From Sandaracinaceae bacterium (GTDB lineage: Bacteria > Myxococcota_A > Polyangia > Polyangiales > Houyiibacteriaceae), in the NCBI GenBank assembly GCA_020633075.1, contig JACKEI010000004.1:97092-161091 (forward strand): a stretch of 64,000 bases of DNA. Reading direction: 5' to 3'. The position numbers and the translations under genes are program-made. Each line of letters opens with the position of its first letter. The stretch's first letter is position 1. Below are positions 9,780-64,000 of this stretch, piece after piece. Below the pieces are notes generated by a model, which saw only the letters and a program-made list of their open reading frames with translations, had not been told where the DNA came from and made no database searches.

Positions 9780-9847
9780 CCGCGCGAGAGCTGCGTCACG
9801 GGCCTCTTGCGCACGACGGGCTTGACGCGGCTCTTCCTTCGGCTACT

Positions 9848-11089
9848 TTGTTGAAAGTGAAAGTCAAAGTCATTATCGACAGGTTCCAAGGGCGGCTGCG
9901 GCAAGGGGTCGCGGCGCATCGCAAGGCCGCGTACCGCGCGCACCGGGTGCTGGGCGTTGGGCTGGCGCTGTGGCTGGCGTTGCTGGCGCTGACGGGCGCG
10001 CTGCTGGTGTTTCGCGCGGAGCTGGACTGGCTGAGCACCCCGGCGCTGCGCGTGGAGCCGGCTGCGGCCAGCGAGCCCGCCTGGCGCCCAGAGCGCGTGA
10101 CGGCCGCCGTGGACGCGCACGCCCCGGGGGCGCGGCTGCTGCGCGTGGACCGGCCGGCTACGTCGCGCTCCGCAAGCCTGGTGCGCATCGCGGAGGGCGC
10201 GCACACGCGCGAGCTCTTCGTGCACCCGCGGACCGGTGTGGTCTTGGGAGGGCGCAGCCTCGATGACGGGCAGCACTCGCTCGCGGACCTGGTCCGTCAG
10301 CTGCACGTGCGTGTGTTGTTGGGAGCCTGGGGCCGCACGCTGGTGGGGCTGCTGGGCCTGCTGTGGGTCGCGGCGCTGGTGACCGGCTGGTGGGTGCACG
10401 GGCGCCGCCGGCCCTCGCGCACGTGGCGGGCACGGCTGCACGCGGGGCTGGCGCGGGTGACGCTGCCGTACGCGGTGATGATGGGCGTGTCGGGCGCGTG
10501 GCTGGGCCTCGAGACGCTGCCGTACTTGCTCTCGCGCGTGGATCTCCGCGCCGCGTTCGGGGCGCCGCACGAAGCGCCGCACGACGCGCCGCACGAAGCA
10601 CCGCACGAAGCACCGGTGCCCGAGACACAGGCGCATGGGGACGTGCTCGCGCACGCGGAGGAGCACGCCAACCGCGCGCTGCCCGGCGCGCGCGTGCAGA
10701 CGCTCTGGCCCCCGGAGCATCCGGACCAAGCTTGGCTCGCCGGGCTGGAGCACACCTCGGCGTGGCTGCCACCGGGCGCGGTCGAGCTCGACCTGCCCCG
10801 CGCAGCGCAGCCGGGACAGTCGGGACAGCCTGCTCGCCCGGCGCGTCTGTACGCACCCACCACCGCAGAGCACGTCACGGGGGCCCTCGAGGCGCTGCAT
10901 GTCGGCTCCTTCGCGCAGCACGCCGGCCCCTTCGCGTGGCCTCTGCGCCTGCTGTGGGCGCTGCTGGGCGCCACCCCGGTGGTGGTCGCGCTGGCCGGCC
11001 TCTACGGCACGCTCCGCCGCTACCGAGCACGCGCCAAGCAGCGCCCACCCCTCCCTCTCACCCCACGACCCCTGCGAGAACTCACATGA
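9848..11089 (+). CDS. PepSY-associated transmembrane (PiuB-like) protein
   Basis: N-terminal AYRAHRVLGVGLALWLALLALTGALLVF and later LVRQLHVRVLLG..GRTLVGLLGLLWVAALVTGWWVH are the characteristic PepSY_TM helices. TTG/GTG start. Confidence 0.75.
   Translation: MLKVKVKVIIDRFQGRLRQGVAAHRKAAYRAHRVLGVGLALWLALLALTGALLVFRAELDWLSTPALRVEPAAASEPAWRPERVTAAVDAHAPGARLLRVDRPATSRSASLVRIAEGAHTRELFVHPRTGVVLGGRSLDDGQHSLADLVRQLHVRVLLGAWGRTLVGLLGLLWVAALVTGWWVHGRRRPSRTWRARLHAGLARVTLPYAVMMGVSGAWLGLETLPYLLSRVDLRAAFGAPHEAPHDAPHEAPHEAPVPETQAHGDVLAHAEEHANRALPGARVQTLWPPEHPDQAWLAGLEHTSAWLPPGAVELDLPRAAQPGQSGQPARPARLYAPTTAEHVTGALEALHVGSFAQHAGPFAWPLRLLWALLGATPVVVALAGLYGTLRRYRARAKQRPPLPLTPRPLRELT
9853..9877 (+). promoter_or_regulatory. 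AT-rich hexamer array GAAAGT-GAAAGT-CAAAGT-CATTAT-C (Fur-box-like, 14/19 to GATAATGATAATCATTATC) at the 5-prime end of the PepSY gene
   Basis: Read directly. Positions 9859-9877 match the classical Fur box at 14 of 19 positions, with the last 8 of 8. It is an unusual AT-rich island in a GC-rich genome. It overlaps the only plausible starts (TTG 9848 / GTG 9854). Confidence 0.25.
10562..10615 (+). repeat. 12-bp in-frame tandem repeat, 4.5 copies, encoding (APH[ED])n
   Basis: GCGCCGCACGAA / GCGCCGCACGAC / GCGCCGCACGAA / GCACCGCACGAA / GCACCG read directly, inside the PepSY gene. Confidence 0.9.
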
Positions 11090-15347: not shown

Positions 15348-16475
15348 CTAGATGCGCATGGGCATGACCACGCCCACGAAGTCGGCGCCGTCACCCACGG
15401 GCTTGATCACGCCCGGGTCCACCTCGCCGTTGAGCTCCAGCGCCACCTCGTCGTGCGAGAGCGCGTTGAGCGCCTCCAGCAGGTACTTGGCGTTGAAGCC
15501 GATGGAGAGCGGGTCGCCCGCGTAGTCCACCTCGAGCTCCTCCACGCCCTCACCCACGTCGGGGTTCTGGCTCTGGACGCGCAGCAGGCCGGGCGAGAGG
15601 TGCAGCTGGACGCCGCCGCTCTTGTCGTTGGCCACCAGGTTGATGCGCCGCAGGGACTCCACCAGGCGCGCCCGCGAGGCGACCACCCGCTTGCTCTGCT
15701 GCTTGGGGATGACCTTGTTGTACGGAGGGAACTGCTCGTCCGCGAGCTTGACGCTCAGGCTGAGCCCCTCGCGCACGAAGAACGCGTGGCCCTTGGTCTT
15801 GGCGACGGCGACCGTGGCGACGGCCTCGCCCCCCTTCAGGTCCGCGCGGGCCTCCTCGATCATGCGCTTGAGCTCGGCGATGCCCTTGTGCGGCACCAGC
15901 ATGGTGAACTCCAGCGTGACGCCCGTGCTGTGCTCGGCCTTGGACAGGCGGTGCCCGTCCGTGGTCACCAGGCGCAGCTTGCCGCCGTCGATCTCCAGCA
16001 GGGTGCCCGACAGGTGCGGGCGCGTGTCGTCGTGCGACATGCTGTACTGCGTGAGGCCGATGAGCTCACCCAGGCGCGTGGCGTCCAGCTCCGCGAAGGT
16101 GGCGTTCTCGGGCACGGGCAGCGGCGGGAAGTCGTCGTCCGCCATGCCGGGGATCTTGTAGCGCACCTTGCCGCAGCGGATCTCGCACGCGTGGTTGGGC
16201 CCCACGCTGAAGCTGACCTCTCCCTCCGGCAGGTTCTTCACGATGTCGAACAGCGTGCGCGCCGAGATGGCCACGCTGCCCGCGCGCTTGACGTCCGCGA
16301 CGGAGAGCGACGTGACCCCGAGGTAGAGGTCCGTGGCAGACAGCCGAACGCGATCCGTGCCCTCGGTCGCGAGCAGGATGTTGGACAGGATGGGCATCGA
16401 GCTCTTCCGATCGGCGACCGCGTGCGTGCGGGCCAGACATCGGAGGAAGTCGCGTTTGCTGATGCTGAACTCCAT
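15348..16475 (-). CDS. dnaN: DNA polymerase III beta sliding clamp
   Basis: MEFSISKRDFLRCLARTHAVADRKSSMPILSNILL...LSATDLYLG...TDGHRLS...PMRI: full-length canonical DnaN. Confidence 0.95.
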   Translation of the reverse strand: MEFSISKRDFLRCLARTHAVADRKSSMPILSNILLATEGTDRVRLSATDLYLGVTSLSVADVKRAGSVAISARTLFDIVKNLPEGEVSFSVGPNHACEIRCGKVRYKIPGMADDDFPPLPVPENATFAELDATRLGELIGLTQYSMSHDDTRPHLSGTLLEIDGGKLRLVTTDGHRLSKAEHSTGVTLEFTMLVPHKGIAELKRMIEEARADLKGGEAVATVAVAKTKGHAFFVREGLSLSVKLADEQFPPYNKVIPKQQSKRVVASRARLVESLRRINLVANDKSGGVQLHLSPGLLRVQSQNPDVGEGVEELEVDYAGDPLSIGFNAKYLLEALNALSHDEVALELNGEVDPGVIKPVGDGADFVGVVMPMRI

Positions 16476-16806
16476 GGGAGACGCTCTCTACTACGAAACG
16501 GGCCAGAGGCGAAAGGCTTGACGATGCGTTGGGAGCTGAGGGGGGGCGGGGCCTGCTAGGAGATCATGAAAGGTAATTTAAAGATCTCGTCGTCTTAACA
16601 GAACCTGTGGATAGTGCGATCAGCGGCGCAACGTCATGAAATGAAACGACAAAGACGCACACGCAGGCTGTGTGTGAAAAAGTGGATGCGCTGTGGGGAA
16701 CGCCGTCCACCGGATACCCACAGGGCTTGTCCCCCGTGATTCACAGGGCTTGTCCACAGGCTCAGGGGCGGCATTTTTTTTCGTCTGGCCTGCTATACCT
16801 CCCGCC
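16476..16806. other. candidate chromosomal replication origin (oriC): DnaA-box cluster plus AT-rich element in the dnaN upstream intergenic region
   Basis: DnaA-box-like 9-mers: 16606-16614 (rc CTATCCACA, 8/9 to TTATCCACA), 16692-16700 (rc TTCCCCACA), 16714-16722 (ATACCCACA), 16737-16745 (TGATTCACA), 16750-16758 (TTGTCCACA, the high-GC consensus form), and 16835-16843 (rc TGATCCACA) just inside the SDR gene. AT-rich 16561-16600 has 27/40 A+T. A 14-nt direct repeat CACAGGGCTTGTCC sits at 16719-16732 and 16742-16755. Confidence 0.5.
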
Positions 16807-17595
16807 ATGGCGCAGCTCTTTCAGGACAAGGTCGTGTGGATCACGGGTGGCGGTACGGGCATTGGCAAGGCCCTGGCCGTCGAGTTCGCGCGGGAGGGAG
16901 CCAAGCTAGCGCTGTCCGGGCGGCGGCGCGACCGGCTGGACGAGGCGGCCGGCGAGCTGCGCACCACCGGGGCCCAGGTGTTGGTGGTGCCCTGCGACGT
17001 GACGGATGAGGACAGCGTCGAGGAGGCCGTGGCGGCCGTCATCGCGGAGTACGGGCAGCTGGACGTGTGCGTGGCCAACGCGGGCTTCTCCGTGGCCGGG
17101 CGCATCAAGAAGCTGCGCGCCGAGGACTGGCGGCGGCAGTTCGACGTGAACGTGATCGGCCTGGCCTCCACGTGTCGGGCGGTCATCCCCCACCTCGAGA
17201 AGACCAAGGGGCGCATCGCGCTCATCGGCAGCGTCTCGGCGCTCTTTCCGGCGCCGGGTCTGGCCCCCTACTCGGCCAGCAAGGCGGCCGTGCGCGTCAT
17301 CGGGGCGTCGCTCAGCGCGGAGCTGCACGGCAGCGGCGTGAGCTGCACCACCATCCACCCGGGCTTCGTGGAGAGCGAGATCGCGCAGGTGGACAACCAG
17401 GGCCGCTTCGACGCCGAGCGCGAAGACAGGCGCCCCGCCAAGCTCATGTGGCCGGCCGACAAGGCGGCGCGCGTGATGGTGCGGGGCATCTACAAGCGCA
17501 AGCGCGAGTTCGTGTTCACGGGGCACGGCAAGGTGGGTGCGTTCTTCGGCCAGCACTTCCCGGGCCTGAGCTACGTGGCCACCCGCGGGCGCTGA
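16807..17595 (+). CDS. short-chain dehydrogenase/reductase (SDR) family oxidoreductase
   Basis: ORF 16693..17595 trimmed to ATG 16807. ITGGGTGIGKA (TGxxxGxG), NAG, and YSASK (YxxxK) motifs. Confidence 0.9.
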   Translation: MAQLFQDKVVWITGGGTGIGKALAVEFAREGAKLALSGRRRDRLDEAAGELRTTGAQVLVVPCDVTDEDSVEEAVAAVIAEYGQLDVCVANAGFSVAGRIKKLRAEDWRRQFDVNVIGLASTCRAVIPHLEKTKGRIALIGSVSALFPAPGLAPYSASKAAVRVIGASLSAELHGSGVSCTTIHPGFVESEIAQVDNQGRFDAEREDRRPAKLMWPADKAARVMVRGIYKRKREFVFTGHGKVGAFFGQHFPGLSYVATRGR

Positions 17596-32573: not shown

Positions 32574-32618
32574 GAGCACGCCGTTACATGAGTGATAGTG
32601 GTATGTTTTCACATAAAC
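32574..32618. promoter_or_regulatory. 45-bp AT-rich divergent promoter/operator region between the LysR gene and the desaturase gene
   Basis: TTACATGAGTGATAGTGGTATGTTTTCACATAA with an imperfect dyad TTACATG...CACATAA. Typical position for a LysR operator. No specific box verified. Confidence 0.3.
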
Positions 32619-42530: not shown

Positions 42531-43079
42531 TCATGGGGTGCCTCGCTTCGGGCGCAGCCGCTGTACGGCGGCCGTGAACTCCCCGCGCGCCAGGCGCAGG
42601 CGGGAGTAGCCGGTGTTGAGTGGGATCTCGAGGGCTTGCGCGATGTCCGGCATCGAGATGCCGTCCAGCTCGTGCATCACGAAGACCGCCCGGCGAGACT
42701 CGTCGACGGCAGCCAGCGCGCGCAGGACCAGGTCGCGGTCTTGCTGGGCCTCCAGCCGGTCATGCGCGTTGGCGCTCTCGTCCGTGCCCTCGGTGTCGTC
42801 CCGCAGCTGCTCACGCCGATTGCTCGCCTTGCGGCGGTAGTCGGACGCGCAGTTCGCGGCGATGCCGAAGAGCCAGGGCTTCAGGGGCCGCGCGGGGTCG
42901 TAGTGATGGGCTTTGCGATGCACGATGATGAAGACGTCGTGGGTGAGATCCTCGAGGTCGGCTGTGCGCACGTCCAGACGCCGGAGGGTGTTCCAGACGT
43001 ACTTGAAGTGCGTACGGAAGACCTCGTCGACGACGAGGCCGTTCTCAGGAGGTCGGGGCGGCGGTGACGAATCCGTCAT
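42531..43079 (-). CDS. ECF-type RNA polymerase sigma factor, cassette 1
   Basis: ORF 42531..43136 trimmed to MTDSSPPP.. (ATG overlapping the upstream stop as ATGA). Region 2 DLEDLTHDVFIIVHRK..PWLFGIAAN and region 4 AVFVMHELDGISMPDIAQALEIPLNTGYSRLRLAR. Confidence 0.9.
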   Translation of the reverse strand: MTDSSPPPRPPENGLVVDEVFRTHFKYVWNTLRRLDVRTADLEDLTHDVFIIVHRKAHHYDPARPLKPWLFGIAANCASDYRRKASNRREQLRDDTEGTDESANAHDRLEAQQDRDLVLRALAAVDESRRAVFVMHELDGISMPDIAQALEIPLNTGYSRLRLARGEFTAAVQRLRPKRGTP

Positions 43080-44311
43080 CGAAGTCTCACACCCACGCCG
43101 ATCGAGGCCAAGACCGACACCGGCGCACCCTGCCATACCTCGGCGCCATTCAGCTGCAGGCTCGGGCGCAGGAGGGGCACATCGGCCGCCACGCGCAGCC
43201 CCAGCGAGACCCGCTCGCCCAGCGCGCGATCGTAGCCGAGCGCGAGCGCCAAGCCCGCTGCGACACCCACGCCACGCTTGGCGTTGGTGACCCCTTCACC
43301 CCGCGCCGGCATCACCCCGGCGAACGCACCCAGGCACCCACGCAGCCCAGCCCCCACGGCGCAGCCCAGCGCGCGCACATCTAGCTGGTAGCCACGCACC
43401 CGTCCGCCACCCGCCGCCGCCGCCTCTGCAGGCAGCCACGCACGCACCCCAAGCTCCGACCCCAGCCAGCCCCGGTCCACGTTCAGCCGCAGCCCAGCCC
43501 CGGGCCGCACCCGAGGCACCACTTCCCACCCCACCAGCAGGTCGAGCCCAACCACCACGACCCGCCCCCGCCCCCCCAATTCCGCCCCGGCCCCCAACTC
43601 CGCCCCCGACTCCGCCCCCGACTCCGACTCCGCCCCCGACTCCGCCCCCGACTCCGCCCCCGCCCCCGACTCCGACCTCCGACCCCGACTCCGACTCCGA
43701 CTCCGACCCCGACTCCGACTCCGACTCCGCCCCGACTCCGACTCCGACCTCCGACTCCGACTCCGACTCCGACTCCGCTCCCCCCCCCGCCCCCGCCCCC
43801 GCCCCCCCCCCCGCCCCGCCCCGCCCCCCCCCCCCGCCCCCGCCCCCGGCGGCCCCAACAGGCTCACCGGGTCAATCGCGACGCTGATCGCCAGCGCAAC
43901 ACCGCGCGCCAGCTCCTCGCAGTCGCGTGTCCGCGACCGGATCTCACGCTGCCCCACCTGTTCCCCGGCGGCGTCGAACACGTCCACGGTCGCCATCAGC
44001 CCGCCGCGCTCGCCTCGAATGACGGTTCGCACGTGCTGTGGGGCGGCATCCCGAAAGGGCACGTAGCCCAGCCGCGCGGACACGGCGTCCCGCAGCTCGG
44101 CCTCGTCGGGGCACTGCTCGGCGCCGCGCTGGCGCTCGTAGGTCAGGCTCGAGGTGGGGTGCTCATCCTGGTCGGCCCCGGTGGTCGCAGCTTCCTCGCG
44201 GCCTTGCGCGTGCACCGCGTCGGCTACCCCCGCCTGCCCCAGCGCGAGCGCCAGCACGAACAGCGGAGCTGCGGCGGAGCGGGTGACGCGGTGGCTCATG
44301 GGCGCTCGCAT
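43076..44311 (-). CDS. secreted protein with an N-terminal two-Cys domain, a G/R/S/E low-complexity insert and a C-terminal beta-rich (barrel-like) half, cassette 1
   Basis: ORF 43076..44533 trimmed to MRAPMSHRVTRSAAAPLFVLALALGQAGVADAVHA (signal). The flanking domains align by eye with the 54350-55435 product. Alternative ATG at 44299. Confidence 0.62.
   Translation of the reverse strand: MRAPMSHRVTRSAAAPLFVLALALGQAGVADAVHAQGREEAATTGADQDEHPTSSLTYERQRGAEQCPDEAELRDAVSARLGYVPFRDAAPQHVRTVIRGERGGLMATVDVFDAAGEQVGQREIRSRTRDCEELARGVALAISVAIDPVSLLGPPGAGAGGGGGAGRGGGRGRGRGGERSRSRSRSRRSESESGRSRSRSRGRSRSRSRGRRSESGAGAESGAESGAESESGAESGAELGAGAELGGRGRVVVVGLDLLVGWEVVPRVRPGAGLRLNVDRGWLGSELGVRAWLPAEAAAAGGGRVRGYQLDVRALGCAVGAGLRGCLGAFAGVMPARGEGVTNAKRGVGVAAGLALALGYDRALGERVSLGLRVAADVPLLRPSLQLNGAEVWQGAPVSVLASIGVGVRLR
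43561..43860 (-). repeat. ~300-bp hexanucleotide microsatellite (CCGACT and CCCCCG units on the + strand) with poly-C runs of 9, 11 and 12 nt
   Basis: Read directly. CCGACT-type units run ~43607-43778. C-runs sit at 43780-43788, 43802-43812 and 43824-43835. This is the G-rich sense strand of gene 43076-44311 and encodes ..GGGGGAGRGGGRGRGRGGERSRSRSRSRRSESESGRSRSRSRGRSRSRSRGRRSESGAGAESGAESGAESESGAESGAELGAGAELGG.. Confidence 0.95.
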
Positions 44312-44427
44312 GATGGCGCCCTCATAGCAGATCGGCGAAGCGAATTCGTGGCGCTGGAGCGCGAGGGCACCCCAAGCATATGCGCGCGCAGCGGAGCTTC
44401 TTCCCTGCGGCGGGCGGCGGACTAGGG

Positions 44428-44453
44428 GACGCTCGCCCTCCGCACACGGTTCC
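44428..44453 (-). promoter_or_regulatory. candidate ECF-type promoter GGAAC-N17-CGTC upstream of cassette 1
   Basis: Minus-strand reading acGGAACcgtgtgcggagggcgagCGTC (GGAAC = 44453..44449, CGTC = 44431..44428), about 115 nt upstream of ATG 44311. Motif match only. Confidence 0.25.
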
Positions 44454-44477
44454 GTGGCGATTCCGGTGACGGAACCG
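44447..44477. other. 9-bp inverted repeat CGGTTCCGT-N13-ACGGAACCG overlapping the candidate -35 element
   Basis: Read directly. It could be the terminator of the upstream Cys-rich lipoprotein gene or an operator. Confidence 0.4.
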
Positions 44478-44617
44478 GGCGCGCTGCCACCCCGCGTGGT
44501 CGGGCTCGTGGGTGTGGCCGCCCCGGTGTCCAAGCCTCCCTCGCGGACGGTGGCGCGGTGTCGCTTCCGGGCGTCTGCGCGGCGACCCTTGTCGCTGCGC
44601 CCGCCGCGCGTCTCGGC

Positions 44618-62892: not shown

Positions 62893-64000
62893 TCAGCTGC
62901 CCTCGCGCAGACGCCGCAGCGACACAGCCGCCTGGCTCATGCCACGCACGTGACGGTCGTACTCGCGGGTGAGCTCCTGGATGCGGGTCGCCGCCTGCAG
63001 CGTCTGCTCGCTGCCCTTGGCCTGGGCGCGGTGGCTCTGGTGCAGGTGATTGACCATGGTGCTGATGCTCTCGATGGCCTGGCTGATCTGCCGTCCGCCG
63101 CGCGCCTGCTCCTGAGAGCTGCGCTCCACGTGCTGGGTGATGAGGCGCATCTTTTCCGCGCTCTTCATGATGAGCTCGGAGCCGCGCGCCTGCTCGGCGG
63201 TGGCCGCTGCGATCTGCTGCACGGTCTCGGCGATGCGGCCGATGGCGTCGGTGACCTGCTTGCTGCCCTTGGCCTGCTCCACCGTGGCGCGGGCGATGGC
63301 GCGCACCATGGCGGTGCTCTTCTGCGAGGACTCGAGGATCTTCTTGAGCGCGCGCTCCGCTTCGGCGGACACCGTGACGCCGCGGTCGACCGTGTTGGCG
63401 CCGCGCTCCACGGCCCCGATGGCGTTCTTGGACTCCGCCTGGATGGTCTTGATCAGCTCGGCGATCTCCTTGGTGGAGGCGCCCGCGCGCTCCGCCAGGT
63501 CCTTGATCTCGTCGGCCACCACGGCGAAGCCCTTGCCGTGCTCCCCGGCCTGCGCGGCGATGATGGCGGCGTTCAGGGCCAGCAGGTTGGTCTGCTCGGC
63601 CACGTCGTCGATGACGTTGAGGATGTCGCCGATGGCCTCGATGCGGCTGCCCAGGTTGGAGATGACGGCCACGGCCTCGGACGAGGTCTCTTTGATGCGG
63701 TTGATCTCGGTGATGATCTTGAGGATGGACTCGGCGCCCTTCTCGGCGTCGCCGGCCACCTCTTCGGACAGGCGCGCCGTCTCGTTGGCGTTGCTCTGCA
63801 CCTGGTCGATGGAGACGTCCATCTCGTTCATGGAGGACGAGGTCTCCTCGGCCGTGAGCGAGAGGGCGTCGACGTTGCGAGCGACCTCCTTGATGGAGTA
63901 GGCCATCTCCTCGATGGAGGAGACCGTCTCGCGCACGCTGGACGCGAGGTTGGCCATGTTCTCGGCGACCTCGTCGTTGGTGGCGGTCATCTCGAGGATG
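62893..64000 (-). CDS. methyl-accepting chemotaxis protein, C-terminal signalling domain (5-prime end beyond the window)
   Basis: Highly conserved MCP hairpin tip ..[44 protein letters not shown].. The frame stays open to the window edge. Confidence 0.88.

Follow-up and report, generated by a model that had tools for sequence, protein, structure and literature searches.

A probable oriC beside dnaN and apart from dnaA in a Sandaracinaceae bacterium

We analysed 64 kb of a Sandaracinaceae genome (the window) and conclude that the 331-bp divergent spacer upstream of dnaN (16476–16806) is likely the dnaN-proximal, unwinding part of the chromosomal oriC, derived from an ancestral dnaA–dnaN spacer from which dnaA has since been separated. 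This judgement comes from comparing sequences. The spacer combines what is expected of an oriC: a cluster of DnaA boxes that exceeds chance, an easily melted AT-rich element, linkage to dnaN, and homology to the presumed origins of relatives. A first-pass annotation had suggested a dnaN-linked, dnaA-unlinked origin at this site, and the reading is supported by the absence of dnaA, the homology of the spacer, the conservation of its boxes and of a module, and the presence of the window's weakest duplex. That annotation also mentioned, correctly, that an origin of this kind had been predicted in Sorangium (PMC2650636, PMC8538405).

The dnaN locus

On one side of the spacer is dnaN (15348–16475, minus strand), encoding a 375-aa DNA polymerase III beta clamp with all three Pfam beta-clamp domains (E = 1e-22 to 1e-31). 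On the other is a gene for a short-chain dehydrogenase (SDR; 16807–17595, plus strand; Pfam adh_short, E = 4e-52), so the gene upstream of dnaN is a divergent SDR and not dnaA, as first described, and the two gene calls give the spacer the same 331 bp. Past dnaN lies a DUF2079 gene, in the place usually held by recF. The spacer has a G+C content of 57%, versus ~72% across the window.

With tblastn we found neither dnaA nor recF in the full 64 kb, a search reaching 47 kb to one side and 15 kb to the other. Pfam detected no replication genes besides dnaN among the 26 window proteins, the 64 kb hold no gyrB or other origin-proximal marker genes, and no parS site was found in the window at ≤3 mismatches. 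In canonical relatives (those with dnaA directly upstream of dnaN, see below), SDR orthologues (60–69% identity) share the strand of dnaA and lie ~3.5 kb upstream of it. This gene order identifies the SDR gene as an old neighbour of the origin region which has since been inverted and now abuts the spacer.

Homology with dnaA–dnaN spacers

We call a locus “canonical” if dnaA is located directly upstream of dnaN, as it is in ~40 related Polyangiales genomes. The window's DnaN shares 65–71% identity with the DnaN of other Polyangiales in which the gene is linked to dnaA, and its branch is not unusually long. Every relative at that level of identity has dnaA and dnaN linked; the window and its 97% relative (L001) do not. 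A nhmmer profile built only from 36 canonical dnaA–dnaN spacers, which are themselves only presumed origins, gave a single match in the 128 kb searched: positions 16574–16763 of the window (minus strand, E = 7.9e-12), aligned with MAFFT (alignment A1). After an offset of ~45 bp, the positions of the window's boxes match the canonical ones. The box closest to dnaN in canonical relatives (at −42) is not in the window, where a G+C-rich linker (16503–16559, delimited by alignments A1 and A2 and the box map) occupies its place and is unconserved even in comparison with L001. Between the linker and dnaN is a leader block (16476–16502, minus strand) with CGTTTCGTAGTAGAGAGCGTCTCCC ahead of the ATG; it is conserved within the clade in alignment A2 and is probably the 5′ UTR and ribosome-binding region, not an origin element.

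In canonical relatives, DnaA boxes cluster both upstream (8.2 boxes/kb) and downstream (8.8) of dnaA, compared with 1.0 boxes/kb elsewhere; this is the two-part arrangement in which clusters flank dnaA. The window has the downstream cluster only and lacks dnaA, so it does not share that arrangement; its homology marks the spacer as the descendant of one half of a two-part origin, the half on the dnaN side. The upstream cluster is retained at “orphan” dnaA loci, i.e., those on three contigs from “Sandaracinus sp.” MAGs (L090, L091 and L093) which have no dnaN within 10 kb of dnaA. Two observations are suggestive of these contigs coming from the window's own genome, though neither is proof: at its right end the window has an MCP-like gene with 89% identity, in the conserved signalling domain only, to a gene 2.3 kb upstream of an orphan dnaA, and the NCBI accession of the identical DnaN (MCB9629496.1) falls between those of two orphan-type DnaA proteins from the same batch of MAGs.

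A conserved Polyangiales module

Part of the spacer belongs to a module with a fixed order: a DnaA box, a short spacer, GTTAAGACGAcGA and AT-rich TTTAAATTA. Each of 56 Polyangiales loci has a single copy of this module (box, then GTTAAGACGA, then AT-rich tract), invariably 90–135 bp upstream of dnaN. Its period-3 purine repeat, GTTAAGACGACGAG (16586–16599, minus strand, in the window), is near-invariant across Polyangiales, with one copy at each of the 56 loci and always between the box and the AT-rich tract.

All lineages that have lost the dnaA–dnaN linkage keep the module beside dnaN. For example, one locus (L092) has six genes (~4 kb) between dnaA and dnaN, and its module is beside dnaN. 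The module is absent from the orphan dnaA loci L090, L091 and L093. Within the unlinked clade, both boxes and module are kept at 97%, 90% and 82% DnaN identity and the neighbouring linker has fully diverged (alignment A2), a pattern which indicates that boxes and module are under purifying selection in this clade. Structured RNA does not explain the conservation, as there was no Rfam match over 15–18 kb.

DnaA boxes and repeats

The module's anchor is the DnaA box CTATCCACA (16606–16614, minus strand), which matches the consensus at 8/9 positions and aligns to the tandem boxes at −95/−102 in relatives. Further from dnaN come TTTTTCACA (16673–16681, minus strand, 7/9), which the first-pass annotation did not list, and a convergent pair: TTCCCCACA (16692–16700, minus strand, 7/9), aligning to the −180 box of relatives, and ATACCCACA (16714–16722, plus strand, 7/9), aligning to their −202 box. 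These are followed by TGATTCACA (16737–16745, plus strand, 7/9) and TTGTCCACA (16750–16758, plus strand, 8/9), the CCTGTGGA core of which is kept in all aligned lineages. The five box-like 9-mers reported earlier were all recovered at the same positions and with the same 7–8 matches.

Two more sites resemble boxes by other measures. The GTCCACC core at 16705–16711 (plus strand; GGTGGA on the dnaN-sense strand) matches the consensus at only 5/9 positions, yet its columns in alignment A2 are invariant in all five aligned lineages. TTGTCCCCC at 16727–16735 is an 8/9 match to TTATCCCCC, the box motif reported for Sorangium (PMC2650636). The same part of the spacer contains a 14-nt direct repeat, already recognised in the first reading: two copies of CACAGGGCTTGTCC on the plus strand (16719–16755), starting 23 bp apart at 16719 and 16742, each of which bridges the end of one box and the start of the next.

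The spacer holds six boxes where 0.6 are expected, and none of 2000 dinucleotide shuffles of the spacer reached six. Since these shuffles are matched to the spacer and still give 0.6 boxes, its lower G+C content does not explain the cluster. Across the 64 kb there are 31 boxes at ≤2 mismatches, seven of them within 16606–16843, and no other 400-bp bin has more than two. The seventh of these is TGATCCACA (16835–16843, minus strand), within the SDR coding sequence. It had been put forward as a sixth box, and it does exist (8/9), but a functional role is unlikely: its bases overlap Rossmann-motif codons (Val-Trp-Ile-Thr), it has two mismatches in L001, and it is probably a coding coincidence.

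The AT-rich core

The candidate DNA unwinding element is an AT-rich core within the inverted repeat GAGATCATGAAA / TTTAAAGATCTC (16560–16588; inverted repeat I6). Of all 25-mers in the 64 kb, the least stable is here (16562–16586), as are the most AT-rich 100-mer (16554–16653) and 300-mer (16556–16855) of the window. The 40-bp element singled out initially (16561–16600) does have 27/40 A+T, joint highest among the window's 40-mers, and the inverted flanks attributed to it are real, with the repeat spanning 16560–16588. The spacer was also described as the only long, non-coding, AT-enriched stretch, which overstates its uniqueness; short AT-rich patches also occur at 32584, 9837 and 2049.

Relatives have their weak point in the same place. 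At none of the 36 canonical loci is any part of the 700 bp upstream of dnaA as weak as the spacer element, and at 31–32 of them that element is the stability minimum of the 21-kb locus, fixed at −71 from the dnaN ATG. At orphan dnaA loci, the weakest duplex upstream of dnaA is −32.6 kcal/mol, no weaker than the rest of the locus.

A basal unwinding system (BUS) consists of a DnaA box, DnaA-trios and an AT-rich tract (PMC8287927). The module has its parts in the matching order: the box, which is tandem in relatives, precedes a short G+C-rich spacer, followed by a tract with trinucleotide periodicity and then an AT-rich tract toward dnaN. It differs in the strand of the periodic tract: the window has (GAC)n on the dnaN-sense strand, so the conserved middle adenine is opposite to the strand expected for the adjacent box. 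We also applied the rule that a box (≤2 mismatches) must be followed within 16 bp by at least three consecutive 3′-NAN-5′ trios on the lower strand (PMC8287927). The window fits this loose rule with CTATCCACA, then G, then GTT CTG TTA, and L001 and the canonical relatives fail on that side. Canonical relatives fit the rule only from their −42 box, which the window lacks. We found no conserved canonical DnaA-trio arrangement, and the three NAN trios that the window has on the expected strand are not kept in the 97% relative.

Replication-direction signals

The genes on either side point away from the candidate origin for ~5 kb each way. Further right, more than ~5 kb from the site (22–64 kb), the minus strand carries 20 of 24 called genes, which a fork coming from the site would meet head-on. 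Across the window, raw GC skew rises from ~0 on the left to positive values on the right, where negative to positive is expected; at third codon positions, the strand-corrected skew (left approximately −0.005, right +0.04) is not significant. We made the same left/right comparison of raw skew in canonical relatives, and in six unlinked loci as well; the right exceeded the left in only 8 of the 36 canonical loci. Because canonical loci do not display the expected pattern, local raw skew is uninformative rather than negative. We therefore dropped local GC skew as evidence either way, both its raw and codon-corrected versions being dominated by coding effects. Strand-skewed k-mers and KOPS-like words were likewise uninformative, as they reflect gene orientation and one repeat-rich gene.

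Alternative explanations

The strongest rival, which we consider unlikely but worth taking seriously, is that the spacer is a relic: its boxes and AT-rich tract would now serve only as a DnaA-regulated promoter of dnaN (and SDR), and initiation would have moved with dnaA to the upstream cluster or elsewhere. The spacer must indeed also carry the dnaN and SDR promoters, and because these share it, conservation alone is no proof of origin function. The breakpoints hug the unit of spacer plus dnaN, as they would for a gene that moved with its promoter, and the window site has no mark in skew or gene orientation. The box cluster upstream of canonical dnaA (8.2 boxes/kb) is still present at orphan loci and could be the active site. 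However, those orphan loci have no outstanding easily melted element (−32.6 kcal/mol), whereas the dnaN-linked element is the minimum of its locus and of the window. In addition, 7–9 box-like sites and an invariant 30-bp AT-rich module far exceed the needs of known DnaA-dependent promoter control. A sigma-70 consensus scan detected no promoter-like site in the module, which counts against a relic promoter there and gives no position for the promoters of dnaN and SDR.

Alternatively, the spacer and dnaN could be a duplicated, paralogous copy, serving as a silent or accessory origin, with a classical dnaA–oriC–dnaN–recF locus elsewhere in the genome. Both flanks of the unit do depart from canonical order, and the genomes are incomplete MAGs in which a second locus is possible. 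We nevertheless think this very improbable: the 65–71% identity between the window's DnaN and canonical DnaN compares with 63–73% among deep lineages themselves, so there is no acceleration of the paralogue type; the nearest MAG (L001) has one dnaN locus among the matches listed, which go down to 34% identity; and the dnaA genes of related “Sandaracinus sp.” (L090, L091, L093) are orphans, free of dnaN within 10 kb.

About as improbable, or slightly more so, is a cluster that titrates or inactivates DnaA (like datA or the Bacillus DnaA-box clusters), lies beside dnaN by chance and initiates nothing. Dense boxes away from the neighbourhood of dnaA would suit such a cluster, but the homology of the region to the dnaA–dnaN spacer means that it is no new cluster, and it keeps an invariant, easily melted AT-rich module for which a titration site has no need. 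Finally, the boxes might be CCACA-containing words clustered by chance in a promoter region enriched in A+T, as the 7/9 matches of four of them could suggest; this has a negligible likelihood and is refuted by the shuffles (0/2000 at the observed count), the profile homology (E = 8e-12) and box positions conserved across more than 50 genomes.

Comparison with known origins

A close parallel to an origin in the spacer is Sorangium cellulosum So ce56, for which oriC was predicted between the sce8163 kinase gene and dnaN (Gao & Zhang 2008, PMC2650636), with dnaA ~2 Mb away (PMC8538405). That prediction used whole-genome disparity curves and the dif site (PMC2650636), whereas ours covers a 64-kb window. 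Both organisms are Polyangiales-type myxobacteria of ~71–72% G+C with an origin placed in the spacer upstream of dnaN, a distant dnaA, variable or island-like DNA adjoining the site, and C-rich box variants (TTATCCCCC in Sorangium, TTGTCCCCC and TTCCCCACA in the window). They differ in the neighbouring gene (kinase versus SDR), the length of the spacer (629 versus 331 bp) and the number of boxes (three reported versus 7–9 box-like sites). We infer that dnaA and dnaN probably separated independently in Sorangium and in the window's clade, because closer relatives of the window (L089) keep the two together.

Two-part origins flanking dnaA are known from Bacillus subtilis (incA/B and incC) and Helicobacter pylori (oriC1 and oriC2) (PMC8287927, PMC6669920). 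Canonical relatives resemble these in having the melting element in the dnaA–dnaN spacer, as incC and oriC2 do (PMC8287927, PMC6669920). The window differs in that the halves are apart and only the dnaN-side half is present, and the DnaA-trio grammar of Bacillus is not clearly present.

Origins linked to dnaN have been confirmed experimentally in the cyanobacteria Anabaena PCC 7120 and Synechococcus elongatus PCC 7942 and predicted in Microcystis (PMC4009838). The scenario published for them, an ancestral origin in the dnaA–dnaN spacer followed by translocation of dnaA (PMC4009838), matches our alignments, and there too the origin is beside dnaN with dnaA elsewhere. Cyanobacteria are a different phylum whose box consensus is TTTTCCACA, and their origins are not expected to be related to this one in sequence.

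Proposed mechanism and implications

With the spacer read as an origin, the ancestral order would have been DnaA-box cluster 1, dnaA, cluster 2 with the AT-rich element, dnaN and recF, a two-part origin of the Bacillus / Helicobacter type. Rearrangements in the window's clade would then have taken away dnaA (presumably along with cluster 1) and recF, leaving the inverted SDR gene, cluster 2, dnaN and the DUF2079 gene. DnaA made from a distant gene is predicted to bind the 7–9 box-like sites at 16606–16758 and to oligomerise from the anchor box CTATCCACA (16606–16614) across the invariant GTTAAGACGACGAG repeat. It would then melt the AT-rich core (16560–16588), the weakest duplex of the 64 kb, allowing the replicative helicase to load and the origin to fire.

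A bolder version, to which we give slightly less than even credence, is that this is a naturally split two-part origin. Its unwinding half would fire beside dnaN, with dnaA and its own box cluster far away on the chromosome, and the linkage would have been broken at least twice independently within the group (by the 4-kb insertion at L092 and in the window's clade), with the orphan loci L090 and L093 as further cases. On this reading, the GTTAAGACGAcGA tract, invariant across the order, would be an origin element specific to the lineage and would act as a non-canonical tract for single-strand binding by DnaA or as the site of an unknown factor.

The layout itself is already known, having been predicted in Sorangium and demonstrated experimentally in cyanobacteria. 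The evolutionary twist is modest, and our understanding of bacterial initiation is unchanged by this origin call. What it adds is sequence-level support for a scenario that had previously only been proposed, in which an ancestral spacer origin stays with dnaN when dnaA moves. It also provides a well-supported origin call for an uncultured, high-G+C myxobacterial lineage with weak GC skew, which aids MAG orientation, replichore analysis and peak-to-trough growth estimates. The Polyangiales module could help to find the origins of further myxobacterial assemblies, and perhaps to re-examine the prediction in Sorangium.

The dnaN-SDR spacer

The minus-strand ORF at 15348-16475 is dnaN, because its 375-aa product carries all three beta-clamp domains. 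A 331-bp gap (16476-16806) separates it from a divergent short-chain dehydrogenase (SDR) gene (16807-17595, plus strand), and the gene 3′ of dnaN encodes a DUF2079 membrane protein, not recF. An identical DnaN sequence occurs in metagenome contigs and MAGs that bear a Myxococcales or Sandaracinaceae label, and the closest species-level genome is an uncultured Sandaracinaceae MAG (locus L001, DnaN 97% identical). Using tblastn with two myxobacterial DnaA sequences and an E. coli DnaA (used only as a probe), we found no dnaA match in the window. dnaA is therefore absent within 15 kb on the dnaN side and 47 kb on the SDR side, in agreement with the first-pass annotation, which had described a dnaN-linked site without dnaA. 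Searches of the 64 kb found neither recF nor parS.

That annotation had also placed five DnaA-box-like 9-mers in the spacer, at 16606, 16692, 16714, 16737 and 16750 (7-8 of 9 matches to TTATCCACA), and a sixth at 16835, within the SDR gene. All of its coordinates, including those of the gap, proved correct, and a seventh box that it overlooked lies at 16673. Allowing up to two mismatches, 31 boxes occur in the whole 64 kb, seven of which fall in 16606-16843, while every other 400-bp bin holds two or fewer. The spacer was shuffled separately because its G+C content is only 57%: it contains six boxes where 0.6 are expected, and none of 2000 dinucleotide-preserving shuffles of the spacer alone reached six. 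The SDR-internal box was overstated: it is weaker in the 97% relative L001 and its position falls on conserved codons, which makes a coding coincidence the probable explanation.

A 14-nt direct repeat and an inverted repeat (GAGATC...GATCTC), both reported previously, are present in the spacer. So is the proposed 40-bp element at 16561-16600, whose 27 A+T make it the joint highest 40-mer in the window, and 16562-16586 is the window's least stable 25-mer by nearest-neighbour energy. The window's A+T maxima at the 100-bp and 300-bp scales fall here as well, but describing the spacer as the only long non-coding, AT-enriched stretch went too far, given other short AT-rich patches in the window. 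A second such patch (9837-9881, 26/40 A+T) overlaps a lone 8/9 DnaA box, TTATCGACA, at 9873-9881.

Homology to canonical dnaA-dnaN spacers

A species-level scan (one genome per species) gave 48 Polyangiales loci. In all those with DnaN 65-67% identical and sufficient upstream sequence, dnaA is the next gene upstream of dnaN, in the same orientation (“canonical” loci), with a spacer of ~400 bp and recF immediately 3′ of dnaN. Boxes in the canonical spacers keep constant positions relative to the dnaN start: -42, -95, -102, -180, -202 and -227. Aligning the window with these spacers (alignment A1) revealed clear homology, comprising an anchor DnaA box (16606-16614 in the window), a near-invariant tract GTTAAGACGAcGA and an AT-rich tract TTTAAATTA, which together we call the module, plus a convergent box pair farther upstream. 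The relatives' dnaA stop codon aligns roughly with the window's SDR start. The dnaN-proximal -42 box is missing from the window, which instead has ~42 extra G+C-rich bases there.

For an unbiased test, a nucleotide profile derived solely from 36 canonical spacers was run against both strands of the entire window. It produced a single match, at 16574-16763 on the dnaN-sense strand (E = 7.9e-12). A simple module pattern matches each of 56 Polyangiales loci a single time, and every match lies 90-135 bp upstream of dnaN. Three GATC sites lie within 60 bp around the window's AT-rich core (16562, 16583, 16618), two of them being the inverted-repeat arms, and a GATC (AGATCT) is kept at the same module position in most relatives.

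SDR orthologues (60-69% identity) sit ~3.5 kb upstream of dnaA in canonical loci. Judging by this gene order, the SDR gene is an old neighbour of the origin region, and the present arrangement looks like a local rearrangement around the origin, not a jump to a new place.

Under the published DnaA-trio rule, a box is followed, after a spacer of ≤16 bp, by three or more 3′-NAN-5′ triplets on the lower strand (PMC8287927). Formally, the window contains such an arrangement (CTATCCACA, G, then GTT CTG TTA). We do not claim membership of the trio system, because this pattern is not conserved in L001 or canonical relatives, the middle adenines of the conserved periodic (GAC)n tract are on the other strand, and relatives conform only when the rule is applied from the -42 box, absent from the window.

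Linkage breaks and the two-part ancestral region

Two further relatives, L088 (DnaN 90%) and L087 (82%), share the window's core order of SDR, spacer, dnaN and DUF2079, while the next relative, L089 (71%), has dnaA-dnaN-recF. Within this unlinked clade (alignment A2), the boxes and 40-bp module are kept and the linker between module and dnaN leader has diverged beyond recognition, a signature of purifying selection on the boxes and module. The window's DnaN branch is not unusually long, a point in favour of an orthologue and against a drifting paralogue.

Linkage is also broken elsewhere. Six genes (~4 kb) separate dnaA from dnaN in L092 (a 9.07-Mb circular contig), where the module (AATCCACAG GTCTTAAGACGGAGAAG TTAATTTAAATTT) remains with dnaN. 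L090, L091 and L093 (‘Sandaracinus sp.’ MAG contigs) carry an orphan dnaA, i.e., one without dnaN within 10 kb, and have no module. Among NCBI accession numbers, that of a DnaN matching the window's exactly (MCB9629496.1) falls between those of two orphan-type DnaA proteins, MCB9620728.1 and MCB9633529.1 (GCA_020633115.1), which come from a single ‘Sandaracinus sp.’ MAG batch. This interleaving suggests that the window's organism may carry the orphan dnaA locus seen in L093.

In canonical loci, box density is high both in the dnaA-dnaN spacer (8.8 per kb) and over the 600 bp preceding dnaA (8.2 per kb), against 1.0 per kb outside these two regions. The dnaA-upstream cluster is conserved and stays with dnaA at orphan loci (alignment A3). 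On this box distribution, the ancestral region was two-part; with the second cluster remaining with dnaA, the window holds only one of the two. The conserved region upstream of orphan dnaA (9300-10000 in L090, L091 and L093; 9380-10000 in L092) has DnaA boxes (in L092, e.g., TTATCAACA, TGTGGATTG, TGTGGATAG and TGTGGATCA) and invariant blocks in common with canonical relatives (GAATC..CGCGATC..GTTAGAAA..CGTAGACG..GCTGCTAGCTTCG). It probably serves as the dnaA promoter and autoregulatory sequence, or else as the other half of a two-part origin.

The main rival explanation is that initiation occurs at the dnaA locus and that the spacer, a relic origin, persists as a dnaN promoter under DnaA control. 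We consider this unlikely. A box cluster does accompany dnaA, but the weakest 25-mer and 40-mer of the spacer are weaker than all of the 700 bp upstream of dnaA in 36/36 canonical loci, and in 31-32 of the 36 nothing in the full 21-kb locus is weaker than the spacer element. This element is always at -71 from the dnaN start, inside the conserved module, which is also the locus-wide stability minimum in L092. The same comparison found no outstanding weak spot upstream of dnaA at orphan loci. The location of the weak element fits Bacillus, Helicobacter, Mycobacterium and Streptomyces, which unwind between dnaA and dnaN (PMC8287927, PMC6669920).

Replication-direction signals and variable DNA

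Plus-strand GC skew is ~0 left of the site and positive to its right, but in this raw comparison even canonical loci lack the expected origin pattern, and local skew is uninformative. After correction for gene strand, skew at third codon positions within the 64 kb is -0.005 on the left and +0.04 on the right. Flanking genes diverge from the site for ~5 kb; farther right, most genes have minus-strand orientation, which lends no support to a fork moving out from here, although this stretch is variable DNA. k-mer skews, an Rfam search and a promoter consensus scan added nothing. A C-rich tandem repeat (43561-43848, ~290 bp, 6/12/18-nt units, CCGACT/CCCGCC) inside a minus-strand ORF (43076-44533) accounts for the strongly negative GC skew at 42-45 kb (-0.17).

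TatA-TatC directly adjoin the SDR gene in L087, and their window homologues are at 61.4-62.8 kb, so ~44 kb (17600-61400) separates SDR from TatC beside the candidate origin. Its accessory-looking genes encode an nSTAND NTPase, a caspase-like peptidase, an ECF sigma/anti-sigma pair, a YhgA-like transposase, a 1530-aa FG-GAP/disintegrin protein and an RCC1-repeat protein, reminiscent of the island-rich surroundings of the Sorangium origin (PMC8538405). An MCP-like gene (62893-64000, minus strand) runs past the window end. Over the C-terminal 364-368 residues it shares 93% identity with the gene lying upstream of TatA in L087 and 89% with a gene 2.3 kb upstream of orphan dnaA in L090/L093. Since this similarity is confined to a conserved signalling domain, it hints only weakly at shared neighbours for the two halves of the old origin region.

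Relation to known origins

The first-pass annotation was right that a dnaN-linked, dnaA-unlinked origin had been predicted for Sorangium: rather than at dnaA, Gao and Zhang placed that of Sorangium cellulosum in the interval flanked by a kinase gene and dnaN (PMC2650636), and a later review puts it nearly 2 Mb from dnaA (PMC8538405). In two cyanobacteria, dnaN-linked origins are experimentally confirmed, and the proposed scenario is an ancestral dnaA-dnaN spacer origin followed by dnaA translocation (PMC4009838). The window's candidate origin belongs with this kind. Homology, conservation and duplex stability support the original reading of the site as an origin, and make it likely that the spacer is the active unwinding part. 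What this case adds is that the ancestral and derived states can be aligned base by base, together with the definition of a module conserved across the order.
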